Virus record (IMG/VR): IMGVR_UViG_2923350032_000003
Strand: one strand, 5' to 3'
DNA from: a virus
Taxonomy: Duplodnaviria; Heunggongvirae; Uroviricota; Caudoviricetes
Length of the DNA stretch: 55,842 nucleotides
Shown here: in pieces, positions 28,206 to 30,390 of the stretch
Position numbering within the stretch: position 1 is the stretch's first letter
Layout: every line of letters starts with the position of its first letter
Program-made: the position numbers and the translations under genes
The notes under the pieces: generated by a model
Database searches by the model: none
What the model was told of the DNA's origin: nothing
Seen by the model: only the letters and a program-made list of their open reading frames with translations

Positions 28206-28516
28206 ATTCCTCCTCCTCCTCCCCGCCATGCATGATCTCCACCATGCGCTGCGTCATTCGGACAAATCCATTTTCAATAGCCTGCTGATAATCAATGATC
28301 ACCAGCGCCGACTCCTCGAAAAGGCACTGAATTTCAGCGGGGGCATGAGCGTAATAGTCCGCAATTCTGCTGAAATTAAACACTGTGTGACGTTCTGCCG
28401 CACACAGGAGGAATTTCTCAATATCAGGATCAAGGGACGCCGAACGTATCCGGCTGATCAGCTCCTGAGTTTTCGTATCGTCGTACAGTTCACTGATATC
28501 CGGTTTACTGTAGTGG

Positions 28517-29263
28517 TCAAGTAATATTGGCCACGGTTTTACAGTAAAAATGGTATCTGTTCTCTGACTCTTCCGGCGTCAGCCCACCGTTATAATGGTG
28601 AGGTCTGACGCTGTTGTAGTAGTTCAATATGTAATCATTAATTTGCTGCCGGGCCTCGTCCTTGCCTGCGTAACCATTCGTTGGCACCCATTCTGTTTTC
28701 AGACTGCGGAAGAAGCGTTCCATGGGGCTGTTATCCCAGCAGTTTCCCCGCCGACTGACGCTTTGATTTATTCTGCAACGCCAGAGAAGTTGTTGATATT
28801 TAAGGCCTGTATACTGGCTTCCCTGGTCGCTATGGAACACGACATCCCGGGGTTGGCCACGCGTCTCATAGGCCATCCGCAGGGCACTGCTTATCAGTGC
28901 GGTATCGGCATGCGCTGACAGACTCCAGCCGATAACCCTGCGGGCAAAAAGATCCATAACAACCGCCAGATAGCACCAGCGATTTCCTGCCCAGAGATAC
29001 GTAATATCTCCACACCATACCCGGTCTGGCTCCGGTACTGCGAACTGACGCTCAAGCAGATTCGGCAGGCTGGTATGCTCCTGACGGGCATTTTTATACT
29101 GATGTTTTCCGGGCTGACAACTGCTCAGGTTCAGATATTTCATCAGACGTCCGGCACGGTAACGGCTCATCGGGACGCCGTTTTGAGTCAGCATTTCAGC
29201 CAGAGTGCGCGCGCCCGCAGAGCCCCGACTTTGGTTCCACGCCCGGCGTATTTCGCTGCACAA
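28517..29263 (-). CDS. IS3-family transposase OrfB (DDE); likely made as OrfAB by -1 frameshift at 29428-29434
   Basis: 248 aa with integrase core motifs; the orfB frame is open upstream to the A AAA AAG heptamer within orfA. Confidence 0.75.
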
Positions 29264-29382
29264 CCTGACTCGTGCCGGATTAACCGTATCGCGTCGTTTT
29301 CGCCAGTACCGGTAACTGCTGCGGTGTATTTCCAGAGCAGAACACAGGCTGACAACCGTGTGGCTGTCACTTAGTCTGGCGG

Positions 29383-29730
29383 CTATCGTGAACCGTTCAG
29401 CGAGTCGGACATTAAGAGCGCGGTAGCCTTTTTTAATATCGTATTTTGTTCCTCCAGACGGCGAACTTGCTTTTCCAGCTCGCGGATACGTTGCTGGTCT
29501 GGAGTAATGGGTGTGGCAGAGGGCGTAATACCCTGGCGCTCTCGCCTGAGCTGGCGTACCCAGCTCTCAAGCGTGGTTGAACCGACATTCATCGCTTCAC
29601 TGGCCTGTCGATATGAGTAGCCCTTATCAACAATCAGCTGTGCACATTCCAGCCTGAACTCAGGGGTGAAGGTTCGTTTGGTTTTCTTGTTCATTAAGTC
29701 ACCTGTTTTGTGTTGTGGTGAGAATATCAC
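29383..29730 (-). CDS. IS3-family transposase OrfA
   Basis: 115 aa; HTH and leucine zipper; ...[18 protein letters not shown] end typical of IS911-like OrfA. Confidence 0.8.
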
Positions 29731-30390
29731 CTTTCATCAGGTGGCCAAATTTAGTGTGCCACTACATACCGCCCGACGGCTCATAAACAGGCGTATCAAT
29801 TTTCGTCGTATACGGCTCCTCCTCATTTCCTGTACCGGGCAAAACATCCGTCAACAGTTCATCAATTTCTGTCGGGATGAAGCCTGTCAGGGAGACATCA
29901 AAATCAGCATTGATTAGGTCCGACAGCTCCATCCGCAACAGATCTTCATCCCAGCCAGCATTCATCGGCAGGCGATTATCTGCCAGGCGGTACGCCTTTT
30001 TCTGCTCATCCGTCAGGCCAGACAGAACAATGACCGGAACAGAATCCATTTTGAGCATTTCAGCCGCCATAACACGACCGTGACCCGCAATAATTTCGCC
30101 CTTTTCGTCAATCAGCACCGGATTAGTCCAGCCGAATTGCTTAATACTTTCTACCAGTTGTGCCACCTGCTCAGTACTGTGCGTCCTGGCGTTGTGCGCA
30201 TACGGTGACAATTCTTGTAATGGGCGATAGACTATCTTTAATTTCTCGCTCATACAGCCTTGCTTTATGAATAAAACGCACCCCAGCAGCCAGTGCTACT
30301 GGGGGCGGAGGTGTTGCTGGTAAAGTTAGGTATTGGATCAATGAGTGAGTCAACATAATATTAAACTCACAATTATAAATCAGCCATATA

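Follow-up and report, generated by a model that had tools for sequence, protein, structure and literature searches.

The locus and the boundaries of the element

We analysed a window of 55,842 nucleotides recorded as a virus of the Caudoviricetes (IMG/VR record IMGVR_UViG_2923350032_000003), and all positions given here are those of this whole stretch unless another record is named. The window is a Rac-type lambdoid prophage that carries trkG together with lysis, terminase, head and tail genes, and it adjoins uspF. At positions 28509..29766 there is a complete insertion sequence (IS) of the IS3 family, an ISEc31-like member of the IS911 clade, which is 1258 bp long and has its transposase genes on the minus strand. 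It separates two parts of ynaK, both also on the minus strand. The 5′ part, which encodes the ParB/Srx N-terminal domain, is found at 29767..30253, and the 3′ part at 28198..28508 is a pseudogene fragment described in RefSeq as “incomplete, missing N-terminus”.

The element is bounded by imperfect terminal inverted repeats (TGTAGTGG...CCACTACA) of 26 nt, 20 of which are complementary; the outermost 8 nt are a perfect match and the termini are 5′-TG...CA-3′. The left inverted repeat (IRL), at the end upstream of orfA, lies at 29741..29766 on the minus strand and reads TGTAGTGGCACACTAAATTTGGCCAC. The right inverted repeat (IRR), at 28509..28534 on the same strand, ends in GTGGCCAATATTACTTGACCACTACA and includes the hexamer TTGACC. 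Directly outside the two ends are two copies of the unstranded trinucleotide TAC, at 28506..28508 and 29767..29769, and the empty site has a single TAC. Imperfect repeats ending in TG...CA, combined with a target duplication of 3–4 bp, are features by which members of the IS3 family are recognised, and both are present here. The coordinates, the length and the terminal repeats proposed in a first-pass annotation of this DNA all hold, as does the TAC duplication, and the repeats and the duplication also withstood re-examination.

Coding capacity of the element

The first gene, orfA, was identified as an open reading frame with a Pfam match at 29383..29694 on the minus strand, stop codon included, running from an ATG at 29694 to a stop at 29383. 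It encodes a protein of 103 amino acids in which a helix-turn-helix DNA-binding domain (Pfam HTH_Tnp_1, E = 8.8e-13) is followed by a leucine zipper of four heptads (L73, L80, L87 and L94), the last of which is kept in both OrfA and the OrfAB fusion. Within orfA lies the slippery heptamer A AAA AAG, a predicted site of −1 programmed ribosomal frameshifting, at 29428..29434 on the minus strand (read from 29434 to 29428). In the orfA frame it is read as TTA AAA AAG, and in the orfB frame it is directly preceded by an ATT codon, as is also the case in IS911.

The orfB frame, which is −1 relative to orfA, occupies 28517..29434 on the minus strand from the slippery site to its stop codon at 28519-28517, a total of 305 codons, and encodes a DD(35)E catalytic domain. 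The catalytic triad comprises D230 (29006-29008), D290 (28826-28828) and E326 (28718-28720), with 35 residues separating D290 from E326. The frame is already open well before the heptamer, so the earlier worry that it might be closed upstream of its first methionine falls away. Frameshifting would generate a predicted OrfAB fusion transposase of 392 amino acids (28517..29694, minus strand). In the conceptual fusion, HTH_21 and rve domains are added to those of OrfA (Pfam rve, E = 5.3e-27), and the protein scores 360.6 bits (E = 1e-107) over positions 1-368 of the 369 in the NCBIfam profile NF033516 (transpos_IS3, IS3 family transposase), for which the curated cut-off is 160 bits. The exact 392-residue sequence is found in public collections, and RefSeq gives a joined CDS, WP_085968792.1, on DNA identical to the element, which it names IS3 family transposase and flags as “programmed frameshift”. 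Two partly overlapping reading frames in phases 0 and −1, with an A6G slippery site from which an OrfAB product is predicted, are the arrangement expected of the IS3 family.

The first-pass annotation had described an IS911-like element with OrfA and OrfAB products, and this description is supported by the NF033516 score, the HTH_Tnp_1 and rve domains and the RefSeq annotation. The heptamer that it placed in orfA is present there, in frame and on the minus strand, and the orfB frame is open from the heptamer as it had said, with the OrfAB protein that it predicted being the one that RefSeq annotates as a programmed-frameshift transposase.

Thermodynamic folding of segments of 141, 54, 89 and 109 nt around or downstream of the slippery site gave no significant RNA structure of the kind that stimulates frameshifting. 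The z-scores against shuffled sequences ranged from −0.31 to +1.19, with none of the folds more stable than shuffled sequence, and the fold of the 54-nt segment has a three-way-junction topology that is weak. A simple scan of positions 28400-29900 for sigma-70 promoters found none in the linear element.

Insertion into ynaK

The truncated ynaK reading frame now occupies 29762-30253 on the minus strand and encodes 163 amino acids, consisting of 162 native residues and one codon (ATG) contributed by the IS, followed by a TAG stop at 29764-29762. The frame ends ...GGC GGT A|TG TAG, with the last five bases (TG TAG) coming from the end of the element. This confirms the earlier proposal that the IS supplies the premature stop of a ParB-like gene, and identifies that gene as ynaK. 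When the element and one TAC are removed in silico an intact ynaK frame of 264 codons is restored, and the protein that it encodes matches ParB_N (PF02195) over residues 23-90 with 29.3 bits against a gathering threshold of 26.3. The intact allele is named in RefSeq as ynaK, ParB/Srx family N-terminal domain-containing protein.

When the empty site with its single TAC was reconstructed over 800 bp, many E. coli genomes matched it at 100%. Of the 5,426 complete E. coli genomes, 943 have ynaK uninterrupted at this site and 11 carry the insertion; these 11 are of human, pig, duck, pigeon and chicken origin. With the filled junction present in just 11 genomes, the insertion is specific to a lineage and has not reached fixation in E. 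coli.

Copies in other replicons and recent mobility

Hundreds of chromosomes and plasmids of E. coli carry a copy that matches the element at 100% identity from end to end. Some match to it is present in 2,415 of the 5,426 E. coli genomes, and the best match is at least 99% identical in 937 E. coli genome records. A best match at this level was also obtained for 309 plasmid records, which are mostly from Escherichia but also come from Klebsiella, Enterobacter, Citrobacter and Salmonella. We read nine other copies in their surroundings and found the same 1258 bp between unrelated flanks; counting the copy in the window, the ends are invariant in all ten and a perfect 3-bp duplication is present in eight. 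The unrelated flanks of these copies and the match of the empty site to its reconstruction place the boundaries of the element beyond chance. A blastn search of the 1258-bp sequence against the whole window matched only itself, and the phage collection that we searched contained no full copy.

The two copies that have no matching 3-bp duplication are at 1501-2758 of locus L001, flanked by TCT and GCC, and at 301-1558 of locus L010, flanked by GGG and GTG. At L010 the neighbours are a GTPase-family pseudogene on one side and a fragment of a YpjA/EhaD autotransporter gene on the other, an arrangement that recurs in many genomes. These features suggest IS-mediated deletion or recombination. Some copies that are otherwise 100% identical are split in two and span 1445 or 2206 bp, so that something has been inserted in them or adjoins them; examples are NZ_CP019250.1 (4642693-4644137) and NZ_CP029243.1 (83038-85243), and the feature names under the matches of split copies include tssC and an IS91 transposase.

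Six collinear relatives of 1258 bp with 91-94% nucleotide identity occur in Enterobacter, Citrobacter, Kluyvera, Atlantibacter, Scandinavium and Serratia. The A6G motif is at nucleotide 333 in all six, and three of them keep the full lengths of both orfA and orfB. In comparison with these three, codon differences in orfA are synonymous in 10-16 cases and non-synonymous in 0-4, and those in orfB are synonymous in 41-47 cases and non-synonymous in 14-17. As judged from this synonymous excess, both reading frames are under purifying selection.

The element could alternatively be a dead relic, structurally complete but with transposition lost, in which case the insertion would be an old scar fixed in the prophage. 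Its presence in 11 genomes from different hosts fits such a reading in that it is stably inherited within a lineage, as does the fact that neither a stimulatory RNA structure nor a promoter was detected. However, the element shows no damage in its two reading frames, slippery site, DDE triad or ends, the insertion is rare next to the 943 uninterrupted sites, and there are hundreds of 100% identical copies, which occupy different sites and are found on conjugative plasmids as well as chromosomes. Since identical copies at different sites indicate recent movement of exactly this sequence, we regard the relic as very improbable. The element is almost certainly an intact and recently mobile IS3-family copy, of the IS911 clade and with ISEc31 as its nearest relative, that transposed into ynaK of an E. 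coli Rac-type prophage.

Relationship to IS911 and ISEc31

IS911, from Shigella dysenteriae and E. coli, serves as the IS3-family model for both −1 frameshifting and copy-out/paste-in transposition, and is 1250 bp long compared with the 1258 bp of the element studied here. We compared the element with the two remnants that are annotated in E. coli K-12, IS911A and IS911B, and applied the usual ISfinder rule by which isoforms share about 95% nucleotide identity. The two elements have in common an orfA/orfB arrangement with A AAA AAG, a 3-bp duplication, TG...CA ends and a leucine zipper that spans the frameshift site. In the first 50 nt of the IRL region, 44 positions (about 88%) are identical to K-12 IS911; the 26 nt around the slippery site, ATATTAAAAAAGGCTACCGCGCTCTT, are identical to K-12 IS911A when its left and right fragments are taken together, and the C-terminus of OrfA is nearly identical. 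In contrast, the sequence downstream of the slippery site that acts as frameshift stimulator in IS911 is not conserved in the window element. Overall nucleotide identity to the remnants is 60-62% (approximately 61%), with 56% amino acid identity between OrfA and K-12 InsN and 52-69% for OrfB.

It might still be argued that the element is IS911 or one of its isoforms, on the strength of the very similar ends, the identical 26-nt frameshift window, the nearly unchanged OrfA C-terminus and some database entries that name an identical OrfB “IS911 transposase orfB”, but the overall nucleotide and protein identities are so far under the isoform level of about 95% that we give this scarcely any credence. 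The low identity to the K-12 remnants makes the element IS911-like rather than IS911. The first-pass description of its ends as “IS911-type” and of the whole as “IS911-like” is therefore apt for architecture, ends and frameshift window, but does not extend to overall identity.

A much closer relative was apparent when matches in E. coli were sampled across the range of identities. There is a second large class of 1258-bp elements with 92.0-92.9% nucleotide identity to that in the window, many of which are labelled in RefSeq as “IS3-like element ISEc31 family transposase”; the class with 100% identity has only a generic name. Identified through this RefSeq label, ISEc31 has the same length of 1258 bp, is collinear throughout and differs by about 7%, and a protein so labelled is 94% identical to the window OrfAB over 301 amino acids. 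Going by the RefSeq labels, ISEc31 is the closest named relative of the element, at up to 92.9% nucleotide identity, and under the 95% rule the window element could be a separately named sister IS of ISEc31. ISEc31 is routinely reported in the literature as an E. coli IS, and the group II intron E.c.I4 is known to home to it (PMC3522654). The papers that mention ISEc31 gave neither a reference length nor an accession for it, and literature searches by inverted repeat sequence, by protein accession and by IS911 together with ynaK returned nothing.

The prophage and its second insertion sequence

As in Rac, the prophage includes the potassium transporter gene trkG, which is located at 30391-31848 on the minus strand, with ynaK on one side and the lysis genes on the other. 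Its head and tail genes are still a complete set, which is not the case in the Rac prophage of K-12. The closest complete genome is that of E. coli 13KWH46, which is 99.99% identical to the window in the parts that they share.

The window contains a second IS3-family element of 1310 bp, an IS1203/IS629-like sequence at 16422-17731 on the plus strand, which lies in a phage tail tube gene. Its orfA is at 16476-16802 and its orfB at 16802-17689, both on the plus strand. The inverted repeats, which begin TGAACCGCCCCGG, are 41 nt long and 76% complementary, and the target duplication is AAC. This element shares with the 1258-bp element its family, two overlapping reading frames, TG...CA ends, a 3-bp duplication and the disruption of a gene in the same prophage, but it belongs to a different subgroup, and its ends are unrelated to those of the 1258-bp element. 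Its junction was found in one uninterrupted piece in no complete E. coli genome of the collection. By blastn, 13KWH46 is without the 1310-bp element. Upstream of essD, that genome has an extra element of the IS3 family, about 1330 bp long (locus L005, 33243-34572), which is absent from the window at around 33242. These differences show that the window does not come from 13KWH46, and that near-identical prophages vary in the insertion sequences that they carry.

That the junction in ynaK might have arisen in assembly, through the wrong placement of an IS repeat in the prophage, has in its favour that IS copies are a classic source of misassembly, but the left junction (400 bp of flank and 400 bp of IS) recurs at 99.9-100% identity in 11 independently assembled complete genomes and a perfect 3-bp duplication brackets the element, which leaves virtually no room for it.

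A match to isrC in orfA

The Rfam family isrC (RF01387, “isrC Hfq binding RNA”) has a full-length match at 29576-29698 on the minus strand, with 150 bits and E = 3.4e-38. It spans 123 nt at the start of the orfA message, beginning 4 nt upstream of the ATG, and coincides with roughly the first 40 codons. RF01387 also matches this IS where it survives as a truncated remnant, in Salmonella arizonae (locus L014) and Salmonella diarizonae (locus L026). IsrC has been described as a 288-nt small RNA encoded in a genomic island between envF and msgA of S. Typhimurium (PMC2330248). The isrC gene of E. coli K-12 (b4435, between yeeP and flu) was considered as a possible IS remnant and was rejected, as it gave no meaningful alignment.

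We take the Rfam family to be the Salmonella small RNA IsrC on account of the “Hfq binding” label and the dissimilarity of the K-12 isrC. The matches suggest that the Salmonella IsrC RNA lies in an IS remnant. A larger proposal would be that IsrC arose by exaptation from the 5′ remnant of an ISEc31-family element and, jointly, that intact copies release an Hfq-binding regulatory RNA; we think the two together doubtful. If true, the IS would be a carrier of a riboregulator. The observation leaves our verdict on the element unchanged.

Proposed route of transposition

Our reading of how the copy reached ynaK draws on better studied members of the family, for two of which, IS911 and IS2, a two-step route through figure-eight and minicircle forms has been described (PMC3299598). 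By homology with these elements the IS in the window would move by copy-out/paste-in. Normal translation would yield OrfA, and ribosomes that slip by −1 at A AAA AAG would yield OrfAB, the DD(35)E transposase. OrfAB would then bind the inverted repeats and join the element end to end to give a figure-eight, which would be converted to a circle in which a spacer of some 3 bp, close to the length of the target duplication, lies between the abutted ends. The abutted ends would form a strong junction promoter, which in this element is predicted to read TTGACC-17 nt-CACACT if the spacer is assumed to be 3 bp, so that the TTGACC within IRR could serve as the −35 hexamer of a circle-junction promoter. 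Integration of the circle would produce a 3-bp duplication; insertion into ynaK duplicated TAC and truncated YnaK after 162 native residues. For the copy in the window we infer the efficiency of frameshifting, the formation of circles and present-day activity by analogy.

Significance for the prophage and its host

The element is of an already known kind and shows ordinary behaviour, and it matters little beyond annotation. The insertion explains why ynaK is split into a 163-residue reading frame and a pseudogene fragment, and, being lineage-specific (11 of 5,426 complete E. coli genomes), it could serve as a strain marker. Together with the insertion in the tail tube gene, it shows a Rac-type prophage that is being degraded by IS3-family elements.
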